From Escherichia coli (GTDB taxonomy: Bacteria; Pseudomonadota; Gammaproteobacteria; Enterobacterales; Enterobacteriaceae): 64,000 nucleotides of DNA. The stretch lies in the NCBI RefSeq assembly GCF_024298765.1, contig NZ_CP101210.1; one strand, 5' to 3'. Below the pieces are notes generated by a model. It was not told the origin of the DNA. It saw only the letters and a list, made by a program, of their open reading frames with translations, and did no database searches. The position numbers and the translations under genes were made by a program. Shown one piece after another: positions 16,257 to 63,746 of the stretch (position 1 is its first letter; each line of letters begins with the position of its first letter).

Positions 16257-17036
16257 TTAGTAGCTGCTGGCGCTCTTACCGTCACCGTGGCCCAGCGCTT
16301 TCAACAGGCTTGCCAGCAGGCTGGAAGCACCAAAGCGGTAGTGACGCGCATCTGCCCAGTCAGCACCGAACAGTTCATCTGCGATGGCGAGATATTTCTG
16401 CGCATCTTCCGCAGTACGCACGCCGCCCGCTGGTTTGAAACCAACGGTTTTTTCTACGCCCATATCACGGATCACTTCCATCATGATGCGCGCGCTTTCC
16501 GGCGTCGCGTTCACAGCCACTTTACCGGTAGAGGTTTTGATGAAGTCCGCACCCGCTTTGATGGAGATTTCAGACGCTTTACGGATCAGCGCTTCGTCTT
16601 TCAGTTCGCCGGTTTCGATGATCACTTTCAGCAGTACATTCGCTGCCGCGCAAGCCTCTTTACAGGCTTTCACCAGGTCAAAACCAACCTGCTCGTTACC
16701 CGCCATCAGCGCGCGGTACGGGAACACAACGTCAACTTCATCAGCACCGTAGGCGATTGCCGCACGGGTTTCTGCCAGCGCGATTTCGATGTCATCGTTA
16801 CCGTGTGGGAAGTTGGTTACCGTAGCGATTCGGATTTCCGGGGTGCCCTGCTCTTTCAGCGTTTTGCGAGCAATCGGGATAAAGCGAGGATAGATACAGA
16901 TAGCGGCGGTATTGCCGACCGGAGTTTTGGCCTGATGACACAGAGCAATTACTTTCTCGTCGGTGTCGTCGTCATTCAGGGTGGTCAGGTCCATCAATTT
17001 CAGTGCACGCAGGCTGCTTGCTTTCAGATCAGTCAT
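16257..17036 (-). CDS. deoC: deoxyribose-phosphate aldolase DeoC
   Basis: start set at MTDLKASSL (259 aa); ORF extends to 17060. Confidence 0.9.
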
Positions 17037-17080
17037 TTCATTCTCCTGGCTTGTCGCCAATAAAATTCACCTTGCGAGTT

Positions 17081-17096
17081 TGTTAGTATTCTAACA
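17081..17096. promoter_or_regulatory. DeoR operator O2 (deoP2)
   Basis: tgttagtattctaaca, 16-bp near-palindrome 45 bp upstream of deoC. Confidence 0.75.
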
Positions 17097-17293
17097 TCTA
17101 CTCCGCAACACACTTCGATATACATCACAATTAAGGAAATCTACTTACAAGTTTGCATCACTGTAATGCGATCTGGTTCAAATAATTCACTTTCAAATGA
17201 ATGCGTCAGTGGTGGCAAACGCATCAGGATCAAAGTGAACATCACGAAACTTCTTACAATGGCGCATCACCTTCGGCATAAAAGGAAAAGAAG

Positions 17294-18844
17294 ATGCCCA
17301 CTTCTCATGAAAATGCACTGCAACAACGTTGCCAGCAAATTGTCACCAGCCCAGTGCTTAGCCCGGAGCAGAAGCGCCATTTTCTGGCTCTGGAAGCAGA
17401 AAACAATCTGCCTTATCCGCAGCTTCCTGCCGAAGCCCGCCGCGCGCTGGATGAGGGTGTAATCTGCGATATGTTTGAAGGTCATGCGCCGTACAAACCG
17501 CGCTATGTCTTACCCGATTACGCCCGTTTTCTGGCGAACGGTTCCGAATGGCTGGAGCTGGAAGGCGCGAAAGATCTTGATGATGCACTCTCTCTGCTGA
17601 CCATTCTTTACCACCACGTACCATCGGTCACATCGATGCCGGTCTACCTGGGGCAACTGGATGCGTTGTTGCAACCGTATGTTAGAATTCTAACACAAGA
17701 CGAGATCGATATTCGAATAAAACGTTTCTGGCGTTACCTCGACAGAACCCTGCCAGACGCCTTTATGCACGCCAATATCGGCCCGTCTGATTCGCCCATT
17801 ACCCGCGCGATCTTACGTGCAGACGCAGAGTTGAAGCAGGTTTCACCGAACCTGACCTTTATCTACGATCCTGAAATCACCCCTGATGACCTACTGCTGG
17901 AAGTGGCGAAGAACATCTGTGAATGTAGCAAACCGCACATCGCCAACGGTCCGGTGCATGATAAAATTTTCACAAAAGGGGGCTACGGGATTGTGAGCTG
18001 TTACAACTCACTGCCGCTGGCGGGTGGTGGCAGCACGCTGGTACGCCTTAACCTGAAAGCCATTGCCGAGCGCAGTGAATCGCTGGATGACTTCTTTACA
18101 CGCACTCTACCGCACTACTGCCAGCAGCAGATCGCCATCATCGATGCGCGGTGTGAATTCCTCTATCAACAATCACACTTCTTTGAGAATAGCTTCCTGG
18201 TGAAAGAAGGGCTGATTAACCCTGAACGTTTTGTGCCAATGTTTGGCATGTACGGATTGGCGGAAGCAGTTAACTTACTGTGTGAGAAAGAAGGAATTGT
18301 CGCACGTTACGGTAAAGAAGCCGCTGCAAATGAAGTGGGTTATCGCATCAGCGCGCAACTGGCGGAGTTTGTCGCCAATACCCCCGTGAAATATGGCTGG
18401 CAAAAACGCGCCATGCTACACGCACAGTCGGGGATCAGTTCCGATATTGGCACCACGCCGGGTGCACGCTTGCCGTATGGTGATGAGCCAGATCCGATCA
18501 CCCATCTGCAAACCGTCGCCCCGCATCATGCTTATTATTATTCCGGCATCAGCGACATTCTGACGCTCGACGAAACCATCAAACGTAATCCGCAGGCGCT
18601 GGTACAGCTTTGCCTCGGTGCCTTTAAAGCCGGAATGCGTGAATTTACCGCCAATGTCAGCGGTAACGATCTGGTTCGCGTTACCGGTTATATGGTGCGT
18701 TTGTCGGATTTAGAAAAATATCGCGCCGAAGGTTCACGCACCAACACCACCTGGCTGGGAGAAGAAGCCGCACGCAACACTCGTATTCTGGAACGCCAGC
18801 CGCGCGTGATAAGCCATGAACAGCAGATGCGCTTTAGTCAGTAA
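17294..18844 (+). CDS. yjjI: YjjI, glycine-radical-enzyme-like protein (DUF3029)
   Basis: 516 aa, divergent from deoC; the 5' part overlaps deoP1/O1/OE if the first ATG is the true start. Confidence 0.85.
17680..17695. promoter_or_regulatory. DeoR operator O1 (deoP1)
   Basis: perfect palindrome tgttagaattctaaca, centre exactly 599 bp from O2 as in the literature. Confidence 0.75.
17959..17974. promoter_or_regulatory. candidate DeoR operator OE
   Basis: tgataaaattttcaca; centre 878 bp from O2 and 279 bp from O1, matching the published spacing. Confidence 0.5.
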
Positions 18845-51013: not shown

Positions 51014-51970
51014 ATGAACCCGATTGCAGTTACCCTACTCACCGGTTTTTTAGGCGCGGGCAAAACCACCCTGCTGCGCCATATTCTTAACGAACAACAC
51101 GGCTACAAGATTGCCGTGATTGAAAACGAATTCGGCGAAGTCTCCGTTGATGATCAACTGATTGGCGACCGCGCCACGCAGATCAAAACGCTGACCAACG
51201 GCTGCATCTGCTGTTCGCGCTCCAACGAGCTGGAGGACGCGCTACTCGACCTGCTGGATAATCTCGACAAGGGCAATATTCAGTTCGACCGTCTGGTGAT
51301 TGAATGCACCGGCATGGCCGATCCCGGCCCGATTATTCAGACCTTTTTCTCCCATGAGATTTTATGCCAGCGTTACCTGCTGGATGGCGTGATTGCGCTG
51401 GTGGATGCGGTACATGCCGATGAGCAGATGAACCAGTTCACCATCGCCCAGTCCCAGGTTGGCTACGCCGACCGTATTCTGCTGACTAAAACCGACGTCG
51501 CAGGCGAAGCAGAAAAACTGCGTGAACGCCTGGCGCGCATCAACGCCCGCGCACCGGTCTACACCGTCACCCACGGCGACATCGACCTGGGCCTGCTGTT
51601 CAACACCAACGGTTTTATGCTGGAAGAAAACGTCGTCAGCACCAAACCGCGTTTCCACTTTATCGCGGATAAACAAAACGATATTTCGTCGATTGTGGTG
51701 GAACTGGATTACCCGGTAGATATCAGCGAAGTTTCCCGCGTGATGGAAAACCTGCTGCTGGAGTCGGCGGATAAACTACTGCGTTACAAAGGGATGCTAT
51801 GGATTGACGGCGAACCTAATCGCCTGCTGTTCCAGGGCGTCCAACGCCTCTACAGCGCCGACTGGGACAGGCCGTGGGGCGATGAAAAACCGCATAGCAC
51901 GATGGTGTTTATCGGGATTCAGCTGCCGGAGGATGAGATTCGGGCGGCGTTTGCGGGGTTGAGGAAGTAA
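51014..51970 (+). CDS. yjiA: CobW/P47K-family GTPase YjiA
   Basis: start set at MNPIAVTLLTGFLGAGKTT (318 aa) with GGAGAG Shine-Dalgarno. Confidence 0.9.
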   Translation: MNPIAVTLLTGFLGAGKTTLLRHILNEQHGYKIAVIENEFGEVSVDDQLIGDRATQIKTLTNGCICCSRSNELEDALLDLLDNLDKGNIQFDRLVIECTGMADPGPIIQTFFSHEILCQRYLLDGVIALVDAVHADEQMNQFTIAQSQVGYADRILLTKTDVAGEAEKLRERLARINARAPVYTVTHGDIDLGLLFNTNGFMLEENVVSTKPRFHFIADKQNDISSIVVELDYPVDISEVSRVMENLLLESADKLLRYKGMLWIDGEPNRLLFQGVQRLYSADWDRPWGDEKPHSTMVFIGIQLPEDEIRAAFAGLRK

Positions 51971-51981
51971 TTTGGGATGAT

Positions 51982-52012
51982 GGCCGCCATGTGGCGGCCT
52001 GAATTATTTTTT
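51982..52012. terminator. bidirectional terminator between yjiA and the brnA-like gene
   Basis: ggccgccatgtggcggcc hairpin followed by T-run. Confidence 0.6.
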
Positions 52013-52306
52013 ATTCTGATCGCGCAGCATCGCTTCACGTAAAATTGCGTTCAGGCGAGTTTGATAGCCTTTACCTGGTCGCTTCAACCATTCCATCACA
52101 TCAGCATCAATACGCACCGAAGCCTGAGTTTTCAATGGCCGATAAAACTTACCGCGTTCTGCGTTAGACCATTGCTCATCGCTGGAAGGTGGGATATCGC
52201 TGTAATCAATCTCTTCGTCGGATTTATTCGCCAGCACCTTCAATTCGGCCTCATGCTGCACATCGAGTGTAGAGGAGGTCCCTCGTTTATGTTTAACCAT
52301 GCTCAT
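52004..52306 (-). CDS. BrnA-like antitoxin (DUF4415/COG3514, RHH-type)
   Basis: 100 aa with family-typical EIDYSDIP...SVRIDADVMEWLKRPGKGYQTRLNAILREAM; ATG overlaps upstream ORF stop (ATGA). Confidence 0.6.
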   Translation of the reverse strand: MSMVKHKRGTSSTLDVQHEAELKVLANKSDEEIDYSDIPPSSDEQWSNAERGKFYRPLKTQASVRIDADVMEWLKRPGKGYQTRLNAILREAMLRDQNKK

Positions 52307-52431
52307 AGCGGCTCCGTTCGTTGTGGATCATCAAACACTAACACCGCATCTTCAAAGCGGATGCCATGTTTCACCCGATTACTTTTGGCCTTGTTTGCAT
52401 CCCATTCAAACTCCATTGGCATAGTTGCCAT
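52303..52431 (-). pseudogene. truncated BrnT-like toxin (DUF497) ORF, 42 aa
   Basis: hand-translated MATMPMEFEWDANKAKSNRVKHGIRFEDAVLVFDDPQRTEPL; BrnT-type N-terminus but about half the usual length; not in the ORF track (<60 aa). Confidence 0.5.
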
Positions 52432-52437
52432 CCCTAA

Positions 52438-52449
52438 TTGTATATACAA
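52438..52449. promoter_or_regulatory. perfect 12-bp palindrome TTGTATATACAA just upstream of the brnT-like start
   Basis: read directly from sequence. Confidence 0.4.
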
Positions 52450-52618
52450 AAATGTATCTACAATTATTCTGCAATTATAGCGTTGATGTTGGAAATAGCA
52501 TCACGTTTCGAATAATCAACCATGAAATTGACAATGTGTGAGTTGGACTTGATTCATCCAATAGAATTTCTCGCCTGACATGGCACACTAAACACCTCGC
52601 TGTCGTTAAGGGATTACC

Positions 52619-53785
52619 GTGAAAAACTACAAAGTCATTACCCCGCTTTTTCCTACCTATGCGCAAGTTAAGGCTATGATGAAAGCCGTCTCAGGCTATT
52701 CCCTGAAAGCGGTACGCAATATGATTACCGCCATTCACGAGCAAACCGGAACGCCGCAAAAACCCGTTGACTGGTCGGAACCTGACCTGTGGATCAGCGA
52801 ACGCTTAACGGGTGAAGATGCCGACATCGCCCGTCGTATTTGGGATACCGATAATCACATATTGAACCCGCGCCACAGCTACGGCTGCTACTTATTCCTC
52901 AACTATCCCCAGTTTGAGCTGATGGAAAGCACGCCAGATGATACCTGGCAGCCCACCTCGCGCGGGCAAAAATTCCTGCAAGATGACGAAAAAACGCTGC
53001 GTTCACTGGACGACCAGGAAGGCATTCTGCAACTGCTTGAGCTGCTGGCTGGCCGGGAAATGTCGCGCCGCGCCGATTTATTGCCGGAATGGCAGGCCTT
53101 TTTGCATCAGCATTCGAAATTCGCGTCAGCAAGTTCAGTGAAAAGCACGCTCTACTCCCGTCTCTATAACCTTATCGACCGTGACATGGTTAACCGTGAA
53201 GGCATGAGCTATCGCATCACCGATACCGGGCGCGCCTGGCTTGGAAAAGCGTTGCCAGCACGAAAAAGCGATCCGCGTAAAGAGCTGCTGGAAGCAGTGA
53301 AACGCTACAACGAGCAGCAAAAAGAGCTGCTGCGCGAACAAATCAGCACGATGAACCCGTACAAATTTGAGCAACTGGTTGGTCAATTACTGGAAGCAAT
53401 GGGCTACGAGCAGGTCGAAGTGACCAAAGCCTCAGGCGATAAAGGTGTGGACGTGATTGGTCAGGTGCAGGTCGGCATCACCACTATTACCGAAGTGGTG
53501 CAGGTCAAAAGAATGCAGAACACTATCACTCGCCCGTATATCGACCAGTTGCGCGGGGCGTTGCCTTACCACAAAGCCATTCGCGGTACGCTCATCACCA
53601 CCGGGAAATTTGCGGCGAAATGTGCAGAAGCGGCGCTCTTTCCGGGTGCCGCGCCCATTACTCTTATCGACGGCGATCGTTTACTGGAACTGTTAATCGA
53701 AAATAACGTCGGCATTCGCCGCAGCAATGCAGTGGAATTGCTGGATGTAGATTTGCAGTTGTTTGATGAGCTGGAGATGGATTAA
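52619..53785 (+). CDS. Mrr-family (Mrr_cat) restriction endonuclease-like protein with extended N-terminal domain
   Basis: 388 aa, GTG start with AAGGGA Shine-Dalgarno; C-terminal GDKGVDVIGQ...VVQVKRMQNTITRPYIDQL; N-terminal ~240 aa unassigned. Confidence 0.7.
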   Translation: MKNYKVITPLFPTYAQVKAMMKAVSGYSLKAVRNMITAIHEQTGTPQKPVDWSEPDLWISERLTGEDADIARRIWDTDNHILNPRHSYGCYLFLNYPQFELMESTPDDTWQPTSRGQKFLQDDEKTLRSLDDQEGILQLLELLAGREMSRRADLLPEWQAFLHQHSKFASASSVKSTLYSRLYNLIDRDMVNREGMSYRITDTGRAWLGKALPARKSDPRKELLEAVKRYNEQQKELLREQISTMNPYKFEQLVGQLLEAMGYEQVEVTKASGDKGVDVIGQVQVGITTITEVVQVKRMQNTITRPYIDQLRGALPYHKAIRGTLITTGKFAAKCAEAALFPGAAPITLIDGDRLLELLIENNVGIRRSNAVELLDVDLQLFDELEMD

Positions 53786-53848
53786 AGGGCGAAATCCGCC
53801 GCCTCAACCATTACAATAGCGACCCAATTTATCTGAACAGAGTTCATC

Positions 53849-55468
53849 ATGGCCAAAGCACCAACTAAAAAAGCCAAAGCAAAGAAAGGCTTTGAAGAAA
53901 CATTATGGGATACCGCAAACCAGCTTCGCGGTAGCGTTGAGTCCTCCGAATACAAGCACGTGGTGTTGAGCCTCGTGTTCCTGAAATTCATCAGCGATAA
54001 GTTTGAAGCACGCCGCAAAAAAATGATTGCCGATGGGCAAGCAGACTTCCTTGAGATGGAAGTGTTCTACCAGCAGGACAACATTTTCTACCTGCCGGAA
54101 GAGGCGCGCTGGTCATTTATCAAACAAAATGCCAAACAGGACGATATTGCGGTCCGTATTGACACCGCCCTCTCGACCATTGAGAAACGTAACCCAACGC
54201 TGAAAGGCGCGCTGCCAGACAACTACTTCAGCCGTCAGAATCTGGAAACCAAAAAACTGGCGTCACTGATTGATACCATCGACAACATCGAAACGCTGGC
54301 ACACGAAACTGACGTTGAAACGTTATCGAAAGAAGACCTGGTCGGACGCGTTTACGAATACTTCCTCGGTAAGTTTGCCGCAACTGAAGGCAAAGGCGGT
54401 GGTGAGTTCTACACGCCTAAATGTGTGGTTACGCTGTTAACTGAAATGCTCGAACCCTTCCAGGGCAAAATTTATGATCCGTGCTGCGGCTCGGCGGGGA
54501 TGTTTGTGCAGTCGGTGAAGTTTGTCGAGAGCCATCAGGGTAAAAGTCGTGATATCGCGCTGTATGGTCAGGAACTGACAGCCACGACGTATAAACTGGC
54601 AAAAATGAACCTCGCCATTCGCGGTCTTTCAGCTAACCTCGGCGAACGCCCGGCAAACACTTTCTTTAGCGACCAGCACCCGGACCTGAAAGCCGACTAC
54701 ATTCTGGCGAACCCGCCGTTCAACCTGAAAGACTGGCGTAACGAAGCTGAATTAACCAAAGACCCACGTTTTGCCGGTTATCGTATGCCGCCAACCGGTA
54801 ACGCCAACTACGGCTGGATTTTGCATATGCTCTCCAAGCTGTCGGCTAACGGTACAGCAGGTTTTGTGCTGGCAAACGGTTCGATGAGTTCTAACACCAG
54901 CGGTGAAGGCGAGATCCGTGCGCAGATGATCGAAAATGATCTGATCGACTGCATGATCGCCCTACCTGGACAGTTGTTCTACACCACGCAGATCCCGGTG
55001 TGTTTATGGTTTATGACCAAATCGAAGGCTGCCGACCCAGCCAAAGGTTATCGTGATCGTCAGGGCGAGACGCTGTTTATTGATGCGCGTAACCTCGGCA
55101 CCATGATTAGCCGCACAACTAAAGAGTTAACGACGGAAGATATTGCCACAATCGCCGATACCTACCATGCCTGGCGCAGCACGCCGGAAGAACTGGCTGC
55201 ACGGATTGCGCGTGGTGACAGCAAGTTGGAAAAATATGAAGACCAGGCAGGTTTCTGCAAAGTTGCAACCCTGCAAGATATTAAAGATAACGACTACGTA
55301 CTGACACCGGGCCGCTATGTGGGTGCAGCCGAGCAGGAAGAAGACGGCGTGGCATTTGAGACGAAAATGCGCGAATTGTCGAAGACGTTGTTTGAGCAGA
55401 TGAAGCAGGCGGAAGAACTGGATCGTGCGATTCGCCAGAATCTGGAGGCGCTGGGTTATGGGCTTTGA
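53849..55468 (+). CDS. hsdM: type I restriction-modification methyltransferase subunit HsdM
   Basis: 539 aa; FYTP, YDPCCGSAGMF SAM-binding motif and ANPPF catalytic motif. Confidence 0.9.
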   Translation: MAKAPTKKAKAKKGFEETLWDTANQLRGSVESSEYKHVVLSLVFLKFISDKFEARRKKMIADGQADFLEMEVFYQQDNIFYLPEEARWSFIKQNAKQDDIAVRIDTALSTIEKRNPTLKGALPDNYFSRQNLETKKLASLIDTIDNIETLAHETDVETLSKEDLVGRVYEYFLGKFAATEGKGGGEFYTPKCVVTLLTEMLEPFQGKIYDPCCGSAGMFVQSVKFVESHQGKSRDIALYGQELTATTYKLAKMNLAIRGLSANLGERPANTFFSDQHPDLKADYILANPPFNLKDWRNEAELTKDPRFAGYRMPPTGNANYGWILHMLSKLSANGTAGFVLANGSMSSNTSGEGEIRAQMIENDLIDCMIALPGQLFYTTQIPVCLWFMTKSKAADPAKGYRDRQGETLFIDARNLGTMISRTTKELTTEDIATIADTYHAWRSTPEELAARIARGDSKLEKYEDQAGFCKVATLQDIKDNDYVLTPGRYVGAAEQEEDGVAFETKMRELSKTLFEQMKQAEELDRAIRQNLEALGYGL

Positions 55469-56855
55469 TTTTCAGTTGTTAGAAAATGCAGGGATCCAGC
55501 TAATTGATGGTGACAGAGGCAAAAATTATCCTAAACATAATGATTTTATGGAGAATGGCTATTGTCTTTTCTTATCCGCTAAAAATGTCACTAAATCTGG
55601 TTTTCAATTTCAAGAAACATTATTTATCAATGAAACTAAAGATCGTGAACTAAGAGCAGGAAAGCTTAAGTACGGTGACATTGTTCTTACTACCCGTGGC
55701 ACAGTAGGTAATGTTGCGTACTATGACAATAATAATCCATATAAACATATTAGAATCAACTCAGGAATGATTATCATTCGAGCTGATAATAAATTATGGA
55801 ACCCTAAATTTCTATATTTCATATTAAAATCAGAACTATTAAAAGAACAGATCATTAATCTTATCTCTGGCTCTGCAGTGCCTCAACTACCCGCGAGAGA
55901 TATTAGGAAATTTATATTACCAGTTATTAATAGAAGCCTTCAAAATAAAATTACTAATATTATCTCAGATATTAATGATAAGGTTAATTTAAATATAGAA
56001 ATTAACCAAACACTCGAAAAAATGTCCCAAACCCTGTTCAAATCATGGTTTGTGGATTTTGATCCGGTGATTGATAACGCGCTGGATGCAGGAAACCCCA
56101 TCCCGGAAGCCCTGCAATCTCGCGCCGAATTGCGTCAAAAAGTACGTAATTGTGCAGATTTCAAACCGCTTCCGGCGGAAATTCGCTCGCTTTTCCCAAG
56201 TGAATTTGAAGAAACGGAGTTGGGTTGGGTGCCAAAGGGCTGGTCTTTCACTGCATTAAAAAACTTTGGTAAAATCATATGCGGTAAAACACCAACTAAA
56301 AGTAACAAAAATTATTATGGCGAAGATTTTCTTTTTATAAAAATACCAGATATGCATGGTAAAGTTTTTGTAACAAACTCACATGATAAATTAAGTAAAC
56401 TCGGTAGCGAGTCACAATCAAATAAAATAATTCCTCATGGTAGCATCTGTGTAAGTTGTATAGCGACTGTTGGTTTAGTCTCTATTAATGCGCAAGATTG
56501 CCATACAAACCAGCAGATCAATAGTATTGTACCAAACAGTCCACATTATCGAAATTACTTATATTTTTCTATGTTAGAGAAATATAAAATATTTCATGAT
56601 TTGGCTAGTGGAGGTAGTGCAACCCTCAATATGAATACAAGTGTGTTCTCTAACATAGCCACATTAATGCCAAATAATCTCGTGCTTAAACAATTTCACA
56701 AAATAACAGAACCTTGGTTTGAAGCCATATTACTAAATGAATATAAGTTGACCTCACTTGCATCTCTCCGAGATACCCTGCTCCCGAAACTCATCTCCGG
56801 TGAGCTATCCCTGGAAGATCTTCCGGATCTCAACACCGATACAGAAGCTGCATAA
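55458..56855 (+). CDS. hsdS: type I restriction-modification specificity subunit HsdS
   Basis: ATG overlaps hsdM stop, GGAGG 9 nt upstream; 465 aa; AT-rich target-recognition-like segments. Confidence 0.8.
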   Translation: MGFDFQLLENAGIQLIDGDRGKNYPKHNDFMENGYCLFLSAKNVTKSGFQFQETLFINETKDRELRAGKLKYGDIVLTTRGTVGNVAYYDNNNPYKHIRINSGMIIIRADNKLWNPKFLYFILKSELLKEQIINLISGSAVPQLPARDIRKFILPVINRSLQNKITNIISDINDKVNLNIEINQTLEKMSQTLFKSWFVDFDPVIDNALDAGNPIPEALQSRAELRQKVRNCADFKPLPAEIRSLFPSEFEETELGWVPKGWSFTALKNFGKIICGKTPTKSNKNYYGEDFLFIKIPDMHGKVFVTNSHDKLSKLGSESQSNKIIPHGSICVSCIATVGLVSINAQDCHTNQQINSIVPNSPHYRNYLYFSMLEKYKIFHDLASGGSATLNMNTSVFSNIATLMPNNLVLKQFHKITEPWFEAILLNEYKLTSLASLRDTLLPKLISGELSLEDLPDLNTDTEAA

Positions 56856-56949
56856 CGCATTTTGCCCCTGTAAAATCAGGGGCTTTCTGGTAAGGTTTTC
56901 TACTGATACGGGAATGCTTACCCGAAATTAGCCAGGGTTGGAGCGCAAT

Positions 56950-59900
56950 ATGAGTCTCTCTTTCAGTGAAGCAAAATTAGAACAAGCGATCATTGAACTG
57001 TTACAGGATCAGGGATATCAACACCTGATCGGCGATAATGTCCCACGTTCAAGTCTCGATCAGGTCATCATCGAAGACGATCTCCGTCATTATTTAGCGG
57101 CACGTTACCAGCCTGATGGCATTACTGAAGAAGAGATTCAGCGACTGATCAAACAGTTCACCACGCTTCCGGCCTCCGATCTTTATGAAAGCAACAAAAT
57201 ATTTTGTCGCTGGCTGGCAAATGGTTTTCTGTTCAAACGCGACGATCGGCAACAAAAAGATCTCTATATTGAATTGCTCGACACCCGGCATCTACCTGCC
57301 GCGCTGCGCCAGATATTTGACGCCGAAGATGTCCCGTTGCAACAGGCGGCGGAACTCCCGCCCTCCTATATTAATCCGCCGCTTAACCGGATTAAGATTG
57401 TTAACCAGCTTCAAATCTCCGGCAAAGATAATCAGACTCGTATTCCTGACGGCATTCTCTATATCAACGGTCTGCCACTGGTCGTCTTTGAATTTAAAAG
57501 TGCGGTGCGCGAGCAGGAAGCCAGTATTGGCGATGCCTGGAAGCAGCTCTGTAAACGCTACCGCCGGGATATTCCACAACTGTTTATCTACAACGCGCTC
57601 TGCATTATTAGCGATGGCGTAAATAACCGGATGGGCAACCTGTTTGCGCCCTATGAATACTTTTACTCATGGCGCAAAGTCACCGGTAATGAAAACCGTG
57701 AACAGGACGGAATTCCATCATTGCACTCAATGATTCAGGGACTGTTTCATCCGGTACGTCTGTTGGATGTGATTAAAAACTTTATCTGCTTCCCGGATAA
57801 AGCCAAGCACGAAGTAAAAATTTGCTGCCGATATCCGCAGTACTATGCCGCCCGCAAACTCTATTACAGCATCAAGCAAGCGCGTAAACCTTTCGGTAGC
57901 GGTAAAGGCGGTACCTACTTTGGCGCAACGGGCTGCGGTAAAAGCTACACCATGCAATTTTTAACCCGCTTGTTAATGAAAAGCGTGGAGTTTGCCAGCC
58001 CGACCATTGTTTTGATCACCGACCGTACCGATCTGGACGATCAGCTTTCTGCGCAAATGTGCAACGCCAAAAATTACATTGGCGATGACACCATCGTTCC
58101 CGTTACCAGCCGTGAAGATTTGCGTAATCAACTGGCGGGACGCAATAGTGGCGGTGTATTCCTGACAACGATCCATAAATTCACCGAAGACACCGAACTC
58201 CTTTCTGAACGCAGCAATATCATTTGCATCTCGGACGAAGCACATCGCAGCCAGGTTAACCTCGACCAGAAAGTCATCGTCGATAAAGAAAGCGGAAAAG
58301 TACGCAAAACGTATGGCTTTGCAAAATACCTGCACGATTCACTGCCAAATGCCACCTATGTTGGCTTTACCGGCACACCGATTGACGCGACGCTCGATGT
58401 CTTCGGTGAGGTGATCGACAGTTACACCATGACCGAATCCGTTCAGGATGAAATCACTGTACGCATCGTGTACGAAGGCCGTGCGGCTAAAGTGATCCTG
58501 GACTCCAGCAAACTGGAAGAAGTCGAAAAGTATTACGAAGAGTGCGCAAACGCAGGCACCAATGAGTGGCAAATCGACGAAAGTAAAAAAGCCACCGCAA
58601 CCATGAATGCGGTACTGGGTGATGAAGATCGGTTAAAAGCCCTCGCGGAAGATTTTGCCAAACATTATGAAAAACGCGTAGCCGAAGGTTCCACCGTAAA
58701 AGGCAAAGCCATGTTTGTTTGTGCCAGCCGTGAAATTGCCTGGGATTTCTACCGCCAGCTTAAAGCTATTCGCCCTGCCTGGTTTGAAGTGAAGCAAGCA
58801 CCTGATGGCGTCGTCCTGACGGAACAGGAGCAGAAAGAGTTACCGCCTTCTGAAATGGTGAAGATGGTCATGACGCGCGGTAAAGATGACGACGAGACGC
58901 TTTATGATTTACTGGGCACAAAAGAATATCGCAAAGAGCTGGATAAGCAGTTCAAAAACGCTAAATCGAATTTCAAAATTGCCATTGTTGTTGATATGTG
59001 GCTGACCGGTTTTGATGTTCCTGAACTGGACACCATCTATATTGATAAGCCCTTACAAAAACATAACCTTATCCAGACTATTTCTCGCGTTAACCGTAAA
59101 CTGGAAGGCAAAAGCAAAGGGTTAGTAGTGGACTACATCGGCATTAAGAGTCAGATGAACCAGGCACTGGCAATGTATTCCCGCATTGATGCCACCAACT
59201 TTGAAGATATTCAGCAATCGGTAATAGAAGTTAAAAACCATCTCGATTTGTTGGGGCAAGTCTTTTACGAATTTGACAGTCGGGATTATTTTAGTGGTGA
59301 GCCACAAGCGCAATTATCCTGCCTCAACCGCGCGGCGGAATTTGTTCTGCGTACCCAGAAAGTTGAACGTCGGTTTATGGGACTGGTTAAACGCATGAAA
59401 GCCGCCTACGACGTCTGCTGCGGCAGCGAAGCATTATCACAGACAGAACGTGACTATATTCACTATTATCTTGCTGTTCGTTCAATTGTTTTCAAACTGA
59501 CGAAAGGTGACGCACCGGATGTCACCCAGATGAATGCTCGCGTTCGTGAAATGATTGCAGAAGCGTTAAAAGCTGATGGCGTAGAAGAAATTTATTTTCT
59601 TGGCGACAAAAAAGCGGAATCCATCGATATTTTTGACGAAGATTATCTGGCGCGAATTAACAAGATCAAACTTCCGGCAACGAAGATCCAGTTATTACAA
59701 AAATTACTGGAAAAAGCGATCAGCGACTTCAGGAAAGTGAACCAGTTGCAAGGGATTAACTTCACCCGCCGCTTCCAGGCGATTATAGATCGTTATAATG
59801 AGCGGCGAGAAGATGATGTACTCAACGGTGAAGAATTCGATACATTCAGTCAGGAAATGACCGATATTATCTATGATATTAAAACCGAAATGGGCACATG

Positions 59901-60213
59901 GGCCGATTTAGGTATTGATATTGAAGAAAAAGCGTTTTTCGACATTCTTGCTCATATGCGCGATAAATATCAGTTCACCTATGACGATGAAAAAATGCTG
60001 TCACTGGCAAAAGAGATGAAAAGCGTGGTTGACAACACATCGAAATATCCTGACTGGAGTAAACGCGATGATATTAAAGCGAAACTGAAAGTTGAACTTA
60101 TTCTGCTTCTACACAAGCATAAGTTCCCGCCAGTAGCGAATGATGATGTTTATATGGGTGTGCTGGCACAGGCAGAGAATTTTAAAGAACATCATATGAG
60201 TGCTTTAAATTAA
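56950..60213 (+). CDS. hsdR: type I restriction enzyme R subunit HsdR
   Basis: 1087 aa from ATG 56950; nuclease motif LVVFEFK, Walker A GATGCGKS, DEAH box. Confidence 0.9.
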   Translation: MSLSFSEAKLEQAIIELLQDQGYQHLIGDNVPRSSLDQVIIEDDLRHYLAARYQPDGITEEEIQRLIKQFTTLPASDLYESNKIFCRWLANGFLFKRDDRQQKDLYIELLDTRHLPAALRQIFDAEDVPLQQAAELPPSYINPPLNRIKIVNQLQISGKDNQTRIPDGILYINGLPLVVFEFKSAVREQEASIGDAWKQLCKRYRRDIPQLFIYNALCIISDGVNNRMGNLFAPYEYFYSWRKVTGNENREQDGIPSLHSMIQGLFHPVRLLDVIKNFICFPDKAKHEVKICCRYPQYYAARKLYYSIKQARKPFGSGKGGTYFGATGCGKSYTMQFLTRLLMKSVEFASPTIVLITDRTDLDDQLSAQMCNAKNYIGDDTIVPVTSREDLRNQLAGRNSGGVFLTTIHKFTEDTELLSERSNIICISDEAHRSQVNLDQKVIVDKESGKVRKTYGFAKYLHDSLPNATYVGFTGTPIDATLDVFGEVIDSYTMTESVQDEITVRIVYEGRAAKVILDSSKLEEVEKYYEECANAGTNEWQIDESKKATATMNAVLGDEDRLKALAEDFAKHYEKRVAEGSTVKGKAMFVCASREIAWDFYRQLKAIRPAWFEVKQAPDGVVLTEQEQKELPPSEMVKMVMTRGKDDDETLYDLLGTKEYRKELDKQFKNAKSNFKIAIVVDMWLTGFDVPELDTIYIDKPLQKHNLIQTISRVNRKLEGKSKGLVVDYIGIKSQMNQALAMYSRIDATNFEDIQQSVIEVKNHLDLLGQVFYEFDSRDYFSGEPQAQLSCLNRAAEFVLRTQKVERRFMGLVKRMKAAYDVCCGSEALSQTERDYIHYYLAVRSIVFKLTKGDAPDVTQMNARVREMIAEALKADGVEEIYFLGDKKAESIDIFDEDYLARINKIKLPATKIQLLQKLLEKAISDFRKVNQLQGINFTRRFQAIIDRYNERREDDVLNGEEFDTFSQEMTDIIYDIKTEMGTWADLGIDIEEKAFFDILAHMRDKYQFTYDDEKMLSLAKEMKSVVDNTSKYPDWSKRDDIKAKLKVELILLLHKHKFPPVANDDVYMGVLAQAENFKEHHMSALN

Positions 60214-60332
60214 TTATGAAGGCCGGATACACTTTGTTATCCGGCCATTCTGAATTAACGTTAATTTCTCTTCCAGATCTTTCCAGTAACGCTTTTATTA
60301 TTTTCTATTTTTAGCTGGACTTTCCCCATATT

Positions 60333-60352
60333 TACTGATGATATGTCCAGAT
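60333..60352. promoter_or_regulatory. LexA (SOS) box upstream of symE
   Basis: TACTGatgatatgtcCAGat fits CTG-N10-CAG. Confidence 0.7.
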
Positions 60353-60354
60353 AT

Positions 60355-60435
60355 TTAGCGCGGTGCGGATGTGCGCCAACACACCCGCACCGCTAATCAC
60401 AATCCCTATTTCAAAGGAATAGTAATCATGACTGA
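60355..60435 (-). ncRNA. symR: SymR antisense sRNA region (boundaries approximate)
   Basis: known cis-antisense RNA over the symE translation start; coordinates inferred from symE position, not from mapped ends. Confidence 0.45.
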
Positions 60436-60766
60436 CACGCATTCTATTGCACAACCGTTCGAAGCAGAAGTCTCTCCGGCAAATAACCGTCAATTAACCG
60501 TGAGTTATGCGAGTCGCTACCCGGATTACAGCCGTATTCCCGCCATCACCCTGAAAGGTCAGTGGCTGGAAACCGCCGGTTTTGCCACCGGCACGGCGGT
60601 AGATGTCAAAGTGATAGAAGGCTGTATTGTCCTCACCGCCCAACCACCCGCCGCCGAAGAGAGCGAACTGATGCAGTCACTGCGCCAGGTGTGCAAGCTG
60701 TCGGCGCGTAAACAAAGGCAGGTGCAGGATTTTATTGGGGTGATTAGTAGCAAAACGCCACGCTAA
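60428..60766 (+). CDS. symE: SOS-induced toxin SymE (AbrB-fold, endonuclease-like)
   Basis: 112 aa from [25 protein letters not shown] Shine-Dalgarno; track ORF starts at upstream GTG. Confidence 0.9.
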
Positions 60767-60807: not shown

Positions 60808-60972
60808 TCACTCCACATCCTCCCTGCGTAACCCAATATCCCTCAATCGCTCATCACTCATCTGCTGTAACACCCGTCGGGCCTGCATTTGCCGCCGCCA
60901 ACGCCTCACCGCCTGCCAGAGTTGCACAAGTCTGATAAACGGCGTTTTGGCTTTGTTTTCGTGAAATTCCAT
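60808..60972 (-). CDS. yjiS: DUF1127 small protein YjiS
   Basis: hand-translated 54 aa MEFHENKAKTPFIRLVQLWQAVRRWRRQMQARRVLQQMSDERLRDIGLRREDVE, GAGGAGG Shine-Dalgarno; absent from ORF track. Confidence 0.8.
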   Translation of the reverse strand: MEFHENKAKTPFIRLVQLWQAVRRWRRQMQARRVLQQMSDERLRDIGLRREDVE

Positions 60973-61148: not shown

Positions 61149-62561
61149 ATGACGCGTTATCAACATCTGGCGACTCTGCTTGCCGAGCGGATTGAGCAAG
61201 GGCTGTATCGTCACGGGGAGAAATTGCCGTCGGTGCGCAGCTTAAGTCAGGAGCACGGCGTCAGTATTAGCACCGTGCAGCAGGCGTACCAGACGCTGGA
61301 GACGATGAAGCTCATCACTCCGCAGCCGCGTTCGGGTTATTTTGTCGCACAACGTAAAGCCCAGCCGCCAGTACCGCCGATGACGCGTCCGGTGCAGCGC
61401 CCGGTAGAGATTACCCAGTGGGACCAGGTACTGGATATGCTGGTAGCGCACAGCGACAGTTCCATTGTTCCGTTAAGCAAAAGCACGCCGGATGTCGAAA
61501 CGCCCAGCCTGAAACCGCTGTGGCGGGAGCTTAGCCGGGTAGTGCAGCATAATCTGCAAACCGTTCTCGGTTATGACTTGTTAGCCGGTCAGCGAGTGTT
61601 GCGAGAGCAGGTTGCCCGCCTGATGCTCGACAGCGGCTCAGTGGTCACCGCCGATGACATCATTATCACCAGCGGCTGCCATAACTCGATGTCGCTGGCG
61701 TTAATGGCGGTATGTAAACCGGGCGATATTGTCGCAGTCGAATCCCCCTGTTATTACGGTTCAATGCAGATGCTGCGCGGTATGGGCGTGAAAGTGATTG
61801 AAATCCCAACCGATCCAGAAACTGGCATCAGCGTTGAAGCGCTGGAACTGGCGCTGGAACAGTGGCCGATTAAAGGCATCATTCTGGTGCCAAACTGTAA
61901 TAATCCGCTGGGATTTATTATGCCGGACGCGCGCAAACGGGCCGTTCTCTCTCTCGCTCAGCGTCATGATATTGTGATTTTTGAAGATGATGTCTACGGC
62001 GAACTGGCGACGGAGTATCCGCGCCCGCGGACCATTCATTCCTGGGATATCGACGGGCGAGTGCTGCTGTGCAGCTCGTTCAGTAAAAGTATTGCACCAG
62101 GCCTGCGCGTGGGTTGGGTCGCACCGGGGCGTTATCACGATAAACTGATGCATATGAAATACGCCATCAGCAGCTTTAATGTGCCGTCCACGCAAATGGC
62201 GGCGGCAACGTTTGTGCTGGAAGGTCACTATCATCGCCATATCCGGCGGATGCGGCAGATCTATCAGCGCAATTTGGCGCTTTATACCTGCTGGATACGG
62301 GAATATTTTCCCTGCGAAATCTGTATTACGCGCCCGAAAGGCGGATTTTTACTGTGGATAGAATTGCCTGAACAGGTCGATATGGTCTGCGTCGCGCGGC
62401 AGCTGTGCCGCATGAAAATCCAGGTGGCAGCAGGCTCGATTTTCTCGGCTTCCGGCAAATACCGTAATTGTCTGCGCATCAACTGCGCTTTGCCGCTCAG
62501 CGAAACCTATCGCGAAGCACTAAAGCAAATTGGCGAAGCCGTGTATCGGGCAATGGAATGA
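61149..62561 (+). CDS. yjiR: MocR-type regulator (GntR HTH fused to aminotransferase-like domain) YjiR
   Basis: 470 aa. Confidence 0.85.
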   Translation: MTRYQHLATLLAERIEQGLYRHGEKLPSVRSLSQEHGVSISTVQQAYQTLETMKLITPQPRSGYFVAQRKAQPPVPPMTRPVQRPVEITQWDQVLDMLVAHSDSSIVPLSKSTPDVETPSLKPLWRELSRVVQHNLQTVLGYDLLAGQRVLREQVARLMLDSGSVVTADDIIITSGCHNSMSLALMAVCKPGDIVAVESPCYYGSMQMLRGMGVKVIEIPTDPETGISVEALELALEQWPIKGIILVPNCNNPLGFIMPDARKRAVLSLAQRHDIVIFEDDVYGELATEYPRPRTIHSWDIDGRVLLCSSFSKSIAPGLRVGWVAPGRYHDKLMHMKYAISSFNVPSTQMAAATFVLEGHYHRHIRRMRQIYQRNLALYTCWIREYFPCEICITRPKGGFLLWIELPEQVDMVCVARQLCRMKIQVAAGSIFSASGKYRNCLRINCALPLSETYREALKQIGEAVYRAME

Positions 62562-62802: not shown

Positions 62803-63746
62803 TTAGTACTCGATCCATGGATCGCGCTTGCTTTCAGGCAAGGGTTGCTCTAATGCCTGCATTTGCTCTGCCGAAAGTCCAGTATATCGTTGTATCCATT
62901 CAGGATCCGCACCGTTCTGCAAAAGCAATCTAAGGAGGCGTTGTTCCCCTTCTTCTTTCCCCTTTTCCATCCCTAACAGCCATCCATCATTATGAATTCG
63001 CTCTGCAATCGTCATTATTCGCTCCCTTTGTTGTGGCATTCGACGGGTAAGTTCACTGATAAACTCATTAAAACGCGCTTCATCGCCAGTCAGTAAAATG
63101 TAATTTAACAGCGCAGTTATCTGGCTGTCATTAGCACACTCTGTAACCAGTAATATTACCAGTTGATCGATAAGCCCCATCAGATCGCGCTGGCGAATAT
63201 GCTTTTGGATCAACTCCAACAGGGCGACTCTGCGGTGCTGCACAATCTCGTCGTCTGGCACGACAGTGACATCCACCAGCGGGAACGCTGCGGTATAAAG
63301 CTTCCGTGCGGTGGTCGGGTCAGCAAATTCGTCCAGCCAGCACAGGGACAGGGATAAGGACTACGGCTACCGTGATAAAACAGCATCGGGATGACCAGCG
63401 GTAGCGGTCGGCGTTTATCATGCTCGATATGGCGCTGCATCACCGCCATGGAATATCGCATCAGGCGAAAGGCCATATGGATATCCTCGCGGCTCTGATG
63501 TTCAATCACTACGTAAATATAACCATCACCTTCACGGGTCTTTACCGACCACAGAATATCGGAGTGTAGCGCCCGCAATTTTTCATCGACGAAGCTGGCG
63601 GATTCCAGTTTTAAGCTGTCGAGATCGCACAGTTCACGTAAATCTTTGGGTAAGTGGATCTCCATAAAATCCCGCGCGGTGTCAGGGTGCGTGAGAAAGG
63701 ATTTAAATAATGCGTCATGCGGCGTGCTGGTTGTGAAGTTTGTCAT
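62803..63746 (-). pseudogene. rpnD: recombination-promoting nuclease RpnD (YhgA-like), frameshifted
   Basis: ORFs 63210..63746 and 62803..63276 overlap in different frames; the first goes out of family sense after ~120 aa. Confidence 0.7.

Follow-up and report, generated by a model that had tools for sequence, protein, structure and literature searches.

The window, a 64,000-nucleotide stretch of Escherichia coli DNA, carries between yjiA and yjiS a cassette of restriction, nuclease and toxin-antitoxin genes (Table 1), and yjiA is named as an anchor of the ICR (PMC12707154). Starting at yjiA, brnA comes first, followed by a brnT remnant, an Mrr_cat gene, hsdM, hsdS, hsdR and symR/symE, with yjiS convergent, and all structural statements of the original prediction about this order hold. 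These include the 388-aa Mrr_cat gene lying co-directional with the hsd genes and 63 bp upstream of hsdM, the overlap of hsdS with hsdM, which amounts to 11 nt, and the lack of mcrBC before symE. Between hsdS and hsdR lies a gap of 94 bp. HsdR measures 1087 aa from the PGAP start, against 1091 aa when counted, as originally, from an upstream TTG. The exact BrnA, Mrr-like, HsdM, HsdS and HsdR sequences, five out of five looked up, each occur on at least 1000 public contigs and are thus real genes rather than chance ORFs. Nearby, the rpn gene is frameshifted in the PGAP annotation.

Table 1. Features of the segment from yjiA to yjiS, in window coordinates.
Feature	Position	Strand	Basis and remarks
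yjiA, GTPase	51014..51970	+	left ICR anchor, flank outside the cassette; PGAP of a 100%-identical record
brnA, intact BrnA-family antitoxin, 100 aa	52004..52306	-	Pfam BrnA_antitoxin E=3e-17; PGAP
brnT remnant	52303..52422	-	34 native codons, then frameshift and stop
Mrr-family nuclease gene, 388 aa, GTG start	52619..53785	+	Mrr_cat; PADLOC candidate PDC-S02
hsdM, type ID methyltransferase subunit, 539 aa	53849..55468	+	TIGR00497; PADLOC MTase_I E=5e-193
hsdS, specificity subunit, 465 aa	55458..56855	+	TRD1, central conserved region, TRD2, C-terminal conserved region
hairpin GCCCCTG-N6-CAGGGGC, then TTTCTG	56864..56883	+	between hsdS and hsdR; terminator-like scan
hsdR, type ID restriction/translocase subunit, 1087 aa	56950..60213	+	TIGR00348 467 bits (cutoff 285); PADLOC REase_I 1715 bits
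symR, antisense RNA antitoxin	60357..60433	-	Rfam RF01809 93.4 bits (gathering score 61); overlaps symE 5' end
symE, type I toxin, 112 aa	60428..60766	+	NCBIfam NF010128 equivalog 218.6 bits (cutoff 132); PGAP
yjiS (DUF1127)	60808..60972	-	flank that bounds the variable segment on the right; PGAP, K-12 comparison

In K-12, the same anchors yjiA and yjiS enclose EcoKI and Mrr, so that there too a type I system is combined with an Mrr-family nuclease, and symER is shared; as had been described, mrr is divergent from hsdR-hsdM-hsdS there, and mcrBC sits beside symE. However, the K-12 hsd family is unrelated, its order is R-M-S as against M-S-R in the window, its mrr is divergent rather than co-directional, and mcrBC, yjiT and yjiV are absent from the locus studied here. 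EcoKMrr (residues 137–304) and the Mrr-like protein have only the C-terminal ~165 residues in common, at 31% identity and an hhalign probability of 99.1.

The segment was rightly presented as an alternative to the K-12 arrangement, but its presentation as an unusual variant gives way to the finding that the allele is common. At least 25 complete E. coli genomes carry the 9.2-kb stretch at 100% identity, 57 genomes reach at least 99% among the matches listed, and at least 80% of the stretch is present in 788 of 5,426 complete genomes. The Mrr-like gene occurs in 880 of the same 5,426 (~16% of complete E. coli, including ST131), always as a single chromosomal copy. The contents likewise match those listed for ICRs, namely types IA, IB and ID, Type IV genes including Mrr, brnAT, symE-symR and rpn, with type ID occupying 12% of ICRs (PMC12707154). 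The stretch is an ordinary, widely shared and already known type ID ICR allele and no novel variant.

Toxin-antitoxin genes lie on both sides of the nuclease genes. An antitoxin with a truncated BrnT-like ORF had been predicted, and this is what the locus holds: BrnA gives a Pfam match and is 96–97% identical to the BrnA of loci with intact brnT, while brnT carries a 158-bp internal deletion with its junction near 52319/52320, leading to a frameshift after codon 34. The brnTA genes are a decayed toxin-antitoxin pair, the toxin destroyed by the deletion and the antitoxin left intact. On the other side, the symE ORF, whose 5' end is covered by the antisense SymR RNA, makes up with it the type I toxin-antitoxin pair, SOS-linked, that is usual here.

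The type I genes can be placed in a family, contrary to the expectation that the hsd type could not be read from sequence; they read as type ID, not as IC or EcoprrI-like. HsdM contains the motifs NPPF and DPCCGSAG. HsdR has a Walker A motif (GATGCGKS) and a DEAH box as well as an N-terminal nuclease motif (D...EFK), all read from the translations. Both subunits are close to members of the type ID family and unlike those of types IA and IC. In a Salmonella cassette, HsdR (1088 aa) is 92% and HsdM 94% identical to the proteins of the window. By comparison, EcoKI HsdR matches with E=1e-5 over 219 residues only, and EcoR124I HsdR, the only solved relative, with E=5e-24 and a best-scoring stretch at residues ~149–515 of 1091. 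The site agrees as well: like the StySBLI, EcoR9I and KpnAI family, the locus is an allele of the serB-linked ICR, with the HsdR of ~1087–1088 aa and the HsdM of 539 aa common to the family, and the window shows the order hsdM-hsdS-hsdR in this ICR between yjiA and yjiS. The assignment draws on a published StySBLI identity figure and on the Salmonella and Klebsiella cassettes, the founder StySBLI, EcoR9I and KpnAI sequences lying outside the comparison, and it is made by sequence and site, whereas the classical definition is complementation of StySBLI or EcoR9I mutants or antibody cross-reaction (PMC3874165).

The closest characterised system is EcoMII of the ST131 strain EC958, also found in JJ1886, which has the same site, order and spacing: brnTA, an 'Mrr' gene (EC958_0079), hsdM-hsdS-hsdR and symE. 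Identity to the EC958/JJ1886 counterparts is 99.4% for both HsdR and HsdM, 98.7% for the Mrr-like protein and 96% for both BrnA and SymE. A characterised system with closely matching genes in the same order was what the original prediction had named as its refutation, and with the identity of the Mrr-like protein, HsdM and HsdR and the shared order the claim of novelty fails. In ST131, brnT is intact, in contrast to the deleted copy of the window. EcoMII methylates AACN4CTTT, as established by SMRT sequencing and knockout, its R subunit is reported to be 92% identical to that of StySBLI, the type ID founder, and its adjacent gene is called 'Mrr' (PMC4659465). Given the near-identity to this experimentally active system, HsdM2S is expected to methylate adenines, with the bipartite target depending on both recognition domains of the HsdS allele, and HsdR2M2S to translocate and cut unmethylated DNA.

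Among the Hsd proteins, HsdS alone differs from EC958/JJ1886, with 42% identity and swapped recognition domains. Since both domains are unlike those of EcoMII, the target is not AACN4CTTT. A search for shared recognition domains gave no meaningful similarity to the HsdS of EcoKI, and one TRD is common to an uncharacterised HsdS allele. The search for shared recognition domains thus yielded no motif for this allele, which agrees with the original statement that specificity is not readable from sequence alone. The central conserved region spans residues ~170–262, and the GC content of hsdS is 30–39%. Of the complete genomes, 56 carry the exact allele, and many of these come from avian and porcine isolates; searches of the literature, including one by RefSeq protein accession, found no experiment on it. 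[quoted passage not shown]

The segment between yjiA and yjiS is best explained as a type ID ICR allele of the StySBLI/EcoR9I/KpnAI/EcoMII family that holds four independent modules, a reading given a probability of about 0.8. Two rival readings concern the hsd genes and the state of the locus. Membership of the type IC family (EcoR124/EcoprrI-like) has in its favour the shared gene order M-S-R and the structured gap ahead of hsdR, which would fit a control region of its own for this gene; it is hardly credible, however, because the HsdR of EcoR124I/II is distant and matches over part of the protein, a prrC-like gene is lacking at the locus, the near-identical EcoMII R subunit itself leads to StySBLI, and no type IC system was found at the ICR in 9,040 genomes (PMC12707154). 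It is also very improbable that the locus as a whole shares the fate of brnT, being in decay and without function. The brnT deletion and the frameshifted rpn fit such decay, but the ORFs of the Mrr-like gene and of all three hsd genes run over their full length and keep their catalytic motifs, the identity of the Mrr-like protein, HsdM and HsdR to the active EC958 system is 98.7–99.4%, and the exact proteins recur on the many contigs noted above. For genome annotation, the locus can be labelled directly as a type ID ICR allele of the ST131 EcoMII family, and it offers no lead for new biology.

The Mrr-like protein was described at the outset as having a large unassigned N-terminal domain. Examination of this half gave structural matches to PadR/MarR winged helices: residues 1–135 form a divergent winged-helix-like domain and residues ~136–211 a PadR/MarR-like winged helix, followed by a helical linker and by Mrr_cat (Pfam PF04471) at residues 243–359 (E=4e-29). 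The N-terminal Mrr_N (PF14338) winged-helix domain was not found in the protein. The N-terminal module has as invariant residues Q42, G44, P46, D51, W52, P55, W58, R62, W75 and N83-P84-R85. The nuclease domain carries the PD-QxK signature of Mrr_cat, with D278, E292, Q295 and K297 unchanged across 43 homologues, the most distant at 50% identity, and its structural matches are AF1548, AspBHI and MspJI, whereas a sequence search of the PDB returned a marginal match to MspJI only. NCBIfam has no equivalog for the Mrr-like protein or BrnA.

The protein matches the PADLOC candidate family PDC-S02 over its full length (PDLC04796, E=2.1e-207, residues 1–386 against profile positions 1–383 of 390), with no sequence-level difference from it. 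What defines the PDC models is that their genes are embedded in BREX, DISARM or type I systems (bioRxiv 10.1101/2024.01.29.577857), and BREX- and type I-linked homologues were recovered independently in this analysis. The family is left out of a paper on winged-helix type IV enzymes (PMC11037411), and the searchable literature yielded no experimental report, anti-phage activity included, on any PDC-S02 protein. The domains, the invariant catalytic residues and the spread of homologues over several type I families (see below) suggest an autonomous, probably modification-dependent candidate nuclease. Beyond the fold, the conserved active site and the linkage, which are observed, we infer that the protein is most likely a separate nuclease in which two winged-helix-type domains would read DNA and the PD-QxK Mrr_cat domain would cut it, and that it probably targets modified DNA escaping type I restriction, which is type IV behaviour. 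Mrr_cat by itself implies no modification dependence, as LlaGI carries this domain yet cuts unmodified DNA (PMC3874153). Because the protein stays ~97–100% identical while the adjacent HsdS varies, it must tolerate Dam, Dcm and many type I m6A patterns. Which DNA PDC-S02 cuts matters for phage therapy host range and for the cloning and transformation of clinical strains. Similar arrangements, with a modified-DNA-type nuclease co-directional with its host system, are TgvAB in the type I operon of Vibrio cholerae VPI-2 and BrxU with BREX, a placement that gives complementary cover against modified and unmodified invaders (PMC11411939; bioRxiv 10.1101/2024.01.29.577857). Both belong to the GmrSD family (DUF262/DUF1524), in contrast to the winged-helix plus Mrr_cat protein of the window.

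The proposal that the Mrr-like gene and hsdMSR form one unit is weakly supported. The block of Mrr-like gene, hsdM, hsdS and hsdR travels together through several genera of Enterobacteriaceae and is kept in E. coli, E. albertii, Salmonella, Klebsiella, Enterobacter and Pluralibacter, including a type ID-family cassette of Klebsiella pneumoniae with the Mrr-like gene upstream, but near-identical Mrr-like genes pair with other type I families. In Citrobacter, a 95%-identical copy stands in front of a type IA hsdRMS, and 86%-identical copies stand in front of further families. Among 59 species-level loci, the type I partners comprise at least five families in several gene orders. A type I gene lies within 1 kb in 27 of these loci, co-directional in 25 and in opposite orientation in the other two (L025 and L046); the remaining 32 have none within 1 kb. 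One Mrr-like gene comes after a BREX system, and another is flanked by rtcB and rtcR. In eleven distant species, the order is hsdR-MrrL-hsdM(-hsdS), MrrL being the Mrr-like gene, with ORFs touching or overlapping, and in one it is M-S-MrrL-R. At the locus studied here, the 63-bp gap before hsdM contains a conserved -10-like TACAAT and, in the scan, no terminator-like site. The promoter scan returned 15 sites against 14.6 in shuffled sequence, and as this is no excess, no promoter claim rests on it. The gene may be partly co-transcribed with hsdMSR, without being a dedicated hsdMSR subunit.

Two further alternatives would couple the Mrr-like protein more closely to the type I system. It could be a functional fourth component that is co-transcribed and either works together with the Hsd complex or acts upon it, for example by adding a second nuclease activity or by regulating restriction. 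Its co-directional position close upstream of hsdM across a gap free of terminator-like sites, the conservation of the four-gene block in all six groups named above, the eleven species with touching or overlapping ORFs and the 25 of 27 co-directional neighbours all fit this, and functional coupling in general also fits the tight, sometimes overlapping placement inside type I operons. Nevertheless, such a role is improbable. Mrr-like genes of 80–95% identity pair with four type I families within Enterobacterales, although the HsdR proteins of different families share little sequence, as the EcoKI comparison illustrates. More than half of the 59 loci have no close type I gene, the loci after BREX and between rtcB and rtcR and the two in opposite orientation also speak against it, and the conserved TACAATAG 29 nt before the hsdM ATG suggests that hsdM has its own promoter. 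Embedded defence genes elsewhere moreover act alone (TgvAB, PMC11411939). Quite improbable, too, is a back-up or guard effector comparable with PrrC of EcoprrI, silenced by the methylation system and unleashed by an anti-restriction protein (Ocr, ArdA, Stp-like). Its genes repeatedly lie next to or within type I systems and in one case next to BREX, and DNA-mimic inhibitors target both kinds of system; this would suit such a latent nuclease, for which PrrC, almost exclusively type I-embedded, is the precedent (bioRxiv 10.1101/2024.01.29.577857). Many homologues nonetheless have no adjacent type I gene, the winged helices and DNA nuclease resemble ordinary Type IV enzymes (EcoKMrr, the MspJI family), and the protein has no sensor or ATPase domain. 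Compared with these alternatives, an autonomous nuclease within a type ID ICR allele is preferred. A further-reaching version is conceivable but rather unlikely, namely that PDC-S02 is an uncharacterised Type IV enzyme whose N-terminal module is a new reader of modified bases, and whose insertion into type I and BREX loci reflects real cooperation or co-regulation rather than shared real estate.

The hairpin between hsdS and hsdR appears in both the MFE and the centroid folds. Its stem is invariant in the E. coli, Salmonella and Enterobacter cassettes, with one loop base differing in Salmonella, and the hairpin may set hsdMS apart from hsdR by acting as an attenuator or a partial terminator.

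Around the hsd genes of this immigration control region (ICR), which is anchored by yjiA on the left and yjiS on the right, the ORF listing agrees on the gene layout with the RefSeq annotation of E. coli 13P477T, whose record is 100% identical. The original prediction had described a variant restriction locus, in which an Mrr-like gene precedes hsdM, hsdM overlaps hsdS, and the arrangement departs from that of K-12; this observation is confirmed. Both sources give the 63-bp spacing that separates the Mrr-like gene from hsdM, as well as an 11-nt hsdM/hsdS overlap, and the K-12 region, with mrr divergent from hsdR-hsdM-hsdS and mcrBC beside symE, upholds the contrast. The toxin-antitoxin pair SymE/SymR has its usual form, whereas brnTA has decayed. 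The gene of the Rpn-family recombination-promoting nuclease is broken in the window and intact in ST131; in K-12, the rpnD found at this position is a pseudogene too.

Features of the ICR and its right flank in the window
Feature	Position	Strand	Remark
yjiA	51014-51970	+	left anchor
brnA	52004-52306	-	intact
brnT	52321-52422	-	pseudogene
'restriction endonuclease' (Mrr-like)	52619-53785	+	388 aa
hsdM	53849-55468	+	
hsdS	55458-56855	+	
hsdR	56950-60213	+	
symE	60428-60766	+	
SymR	60357-60433	-	Rfam
yjiS	60808-60972	-	right edge
yjiR	61149-62561	+	
rpn	62803-63746	-	frameshifted, two overlapping ORFs (157 + 178 aa)

Judged by protein identity and gene order, the locus is the known type ID allele of the ICR, because of its likeness to the ST131 system EcoMII and to a Salmonella cassette, and because of the ICR contents described in a 2025 review. 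In the ST131 strains JJ1886 and EC958, the gene order and the site are identical to those of the window, with 99.4% identity in HsdR, 99.4% in HsdM, and 98.7% in the Mrr-like protein, but just 42% in HsdS. EcoMII, the type I system of EC958, forms an operon hsdM-hsdS-hsdR with an adjoining 'Mrr'; its R subunit shares 92% identity with that of StySBLI, the founder of type ID, and AACN4CTTT methylation is gone in an EC958 knockout (PMC4659465). The Salmonella enterica cassette contains yjiA, brnA, the Mrr-like gene, hsdM (539 aa), hsdS, hsdR (1088 aa), and yjiS, with HsdR and HsdM sharing 92% and 94% identity with the window, and the type ID block with the Mrr-like gene is also present in Klebsiella, Enterobacter, E. 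albertii, and Pluralibacter. According to the review, types IA, IB, and ID occur at the ICR together with Type IV genes and with toxin-antitoxin systems, namely brnAT, symE-symR, and rpn; 12% of enterobacterial ICRs hold type ID, and no type IC was found there (PMC12707154). HsdR is remote from the type IC enzyme EcoR124I, its sole solved relative (E=5e-24, best-scoring stretch residues ~149-515 of 1091), and matches EcoKI (type IA) at E=1e-5. The novelty claimed for the variant is therefore lost, since genes and order, HsdS excepted, are highly identical to a characterised system; a locus of this kind is common and has been described before, and the earlier interpretation is partly supported. 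In the Salmonella cassette (L015), a DUF5655 gene (16783-17703) lies where the E. coli type ID cassette has symE, and likewise no brnT gene is called beside brnA.

HsdS has the usual layout of TRD1, a central conserved region (~residues 170-262), TRD2, and a conserved C-terminus. Its matches to the EC958 HsdS are confined to the conserved regions, and the difference reads as ordinary domain shuffling; the gene is AT-rich (30–39% GC, against ~50% in the surroundings). In RefSeq, HsdS is WP_000505212.1 and HsdM is WP_001029747.1. Neither comparison with the EcoKI HsdS nor a literature search by protein accession assigned a recognition sequence. The exact hsdS allele is carried by 56 genomes, and many others match in the conserved parts or in one recognition domain only. 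Among the carriers are 2009C-3133, FDAARGOS_1286/1287, and APEC O2-211, whose genomes are complete. With the 9.2-kb locus as query, all of the best 25 complete genomes listed are 100% identical, 57 records reach at least 99% identity, and 788 of the 5,426 complete E. coli genomes contain at least 80% of the query. Within the same set, the Mrr-like gene occurs in 880 genomes, always as a single chromosomal copy, and the exact sequences of BrnA, the Mrr-like protein, HsdM, HsdS, and HsdR are each found on at least 1000 public contigs. The brnA/brnT sequence beside yjiA (query 52280-52365) is present in 2,109 of the 5,426 genomes, far above the count of the type ID cassette; therefore, brnTA also accompanies other ICR alleles.

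The Mrr-like protein is a full-length match to the PADLOC candidate PDC-S02 (E=2e-207), with Mrr_cat at residues 243-359 (Pfam), and its alignment to EcoKMrr (31% identity) begins only at residue ~216. Asp278, Glu292, Gln295, and Lys297 are invariant across 43 homologues, down to 50% identity, and the nuclease is therefore probably active. The AlphaFold model (pLDDT 84.6) resembles the nuclease folds of AF1548, AspBHI, and MspJI, while its N-terminal half resembles PadR/MarR winged helices. These fold matches answer the question about the N-terminus, which had been left unassigned: in the predicted order, a divergent winged-helix-like module comes first and a canonical winged helix second, and a helical linker then leads to Mrr_cat.

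Since HsdR and HsdM are each 99.4% identical to those of the active EcoMII, HsdM2S would methylate a bipartite target dictated by the HsdS of the window, and HsdR2M2S would restrict DNA without that methylation. The winged-helix domains of the Mrr-like enzyme probably bind DNA, which the PD-QxK site would cut. Its target is likely DNA with modifications foreign to the host, because the enzyme has to tolerate Dam and Dcm as well as numerous type I patterns; Mrr_cat by itself is no guarantee of modification dependence (PMC3874153).

Two signals lie between the genes. Within the 63-bp gap behind the Mrr-like gene, TACAATAG at 53812-53819 (+), 29 nt 5' of the hsdM ATG, is kept in four genera and is a possible -10 element of a promoter for hsdM, with no good -35 element in evidence. 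Between hsdS and hsdR, a GC-rich hairpin at 56864-56883 (+), GCCCCTG-N6-CAGGGGC followed by TTTCTG, is stable when folded and terminator-like in the scan. Its stem is likewise invariant across the four genera, including the type ID cassettes from E. coli, Salmonella, and Enterobacter, with one loop base differing in Salmonella, and it could act as an attenuator setting the ratio of HsdR to HsdMS. Together, the two elements fit separate controls for hsdMS and hsdR without being proof on transcription.

The Mrr-like gene was further surveyed in one genome per species, with the flanks scanned for Hsd proteins. A type I gene lies within 1 kb in 27 of 59 full-length loci (22/39 where at least 3 kb is available on both sides), and 25 of these 27 adjacent loci are co-directional with it. 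The order MrrL-M-S-R (MrrL, the Mrr-like gene) belongs to type ID in Enterobacteriaceae. MrrL-R-M-S is found with a type IA-like system in Citrobacter sp. FP75 (L019, 1162-9066) and with an IB-like system in C. youngae; in the former, the Mrr-like protein is 95% identical to that of the window, which reads as an hsd cassette swapped next to an Mrr-like gene that stayed in place, or vice versa. MrrL adjoins a 786-aa-HsdM family in Yokenella (co-directional) and Serratia (convergent), R-MrrL-M(-S), whose ORFs touch or overlap, occurs in 11 species (Pseudomonas, Stutzerimonas, Polaromonas, Thiocystis, and others), M-S-MrrL-R in Kroppenstedtia, and M-S-R-MrrL in Vibrio owensii. The 32 loci that lack a type I gene within 1 kb include one directly after a BREX cluster in Modicisalibacter and one rtcB/rtcR locus. 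With its differing partners and orders, this pattern favours an autonomous module that recurs beside methylation-based defence, in the same orientation, and speaks against a fourth subunit dedicated to the type ID enzyme. Such recurrent embedding is the defining criterion of PADLOC PDC candidates (bioRxiv 10.1101/2024.01.29.577857), and tested parallels are the Type IV genes within type I or BREX loci, TgvAB and BrxU (PMC11411939; bioRxiv 10.1101/2024.01.29.577857).

On a JGI metagenome contig (L011, 8001-9158), a 63%-identical homologue stands alone between rtcB, of an RNA repair operon, and rtcR, the regulator of that operon; another rtcB lies close by. In Kushneria indalinina (L010 and L063), the order hsdR-hsdS-[TIR-domain gene]-hsdM is followed immediately by the Mrr-like gene, thus placing two accessory defence genes on one type I system.
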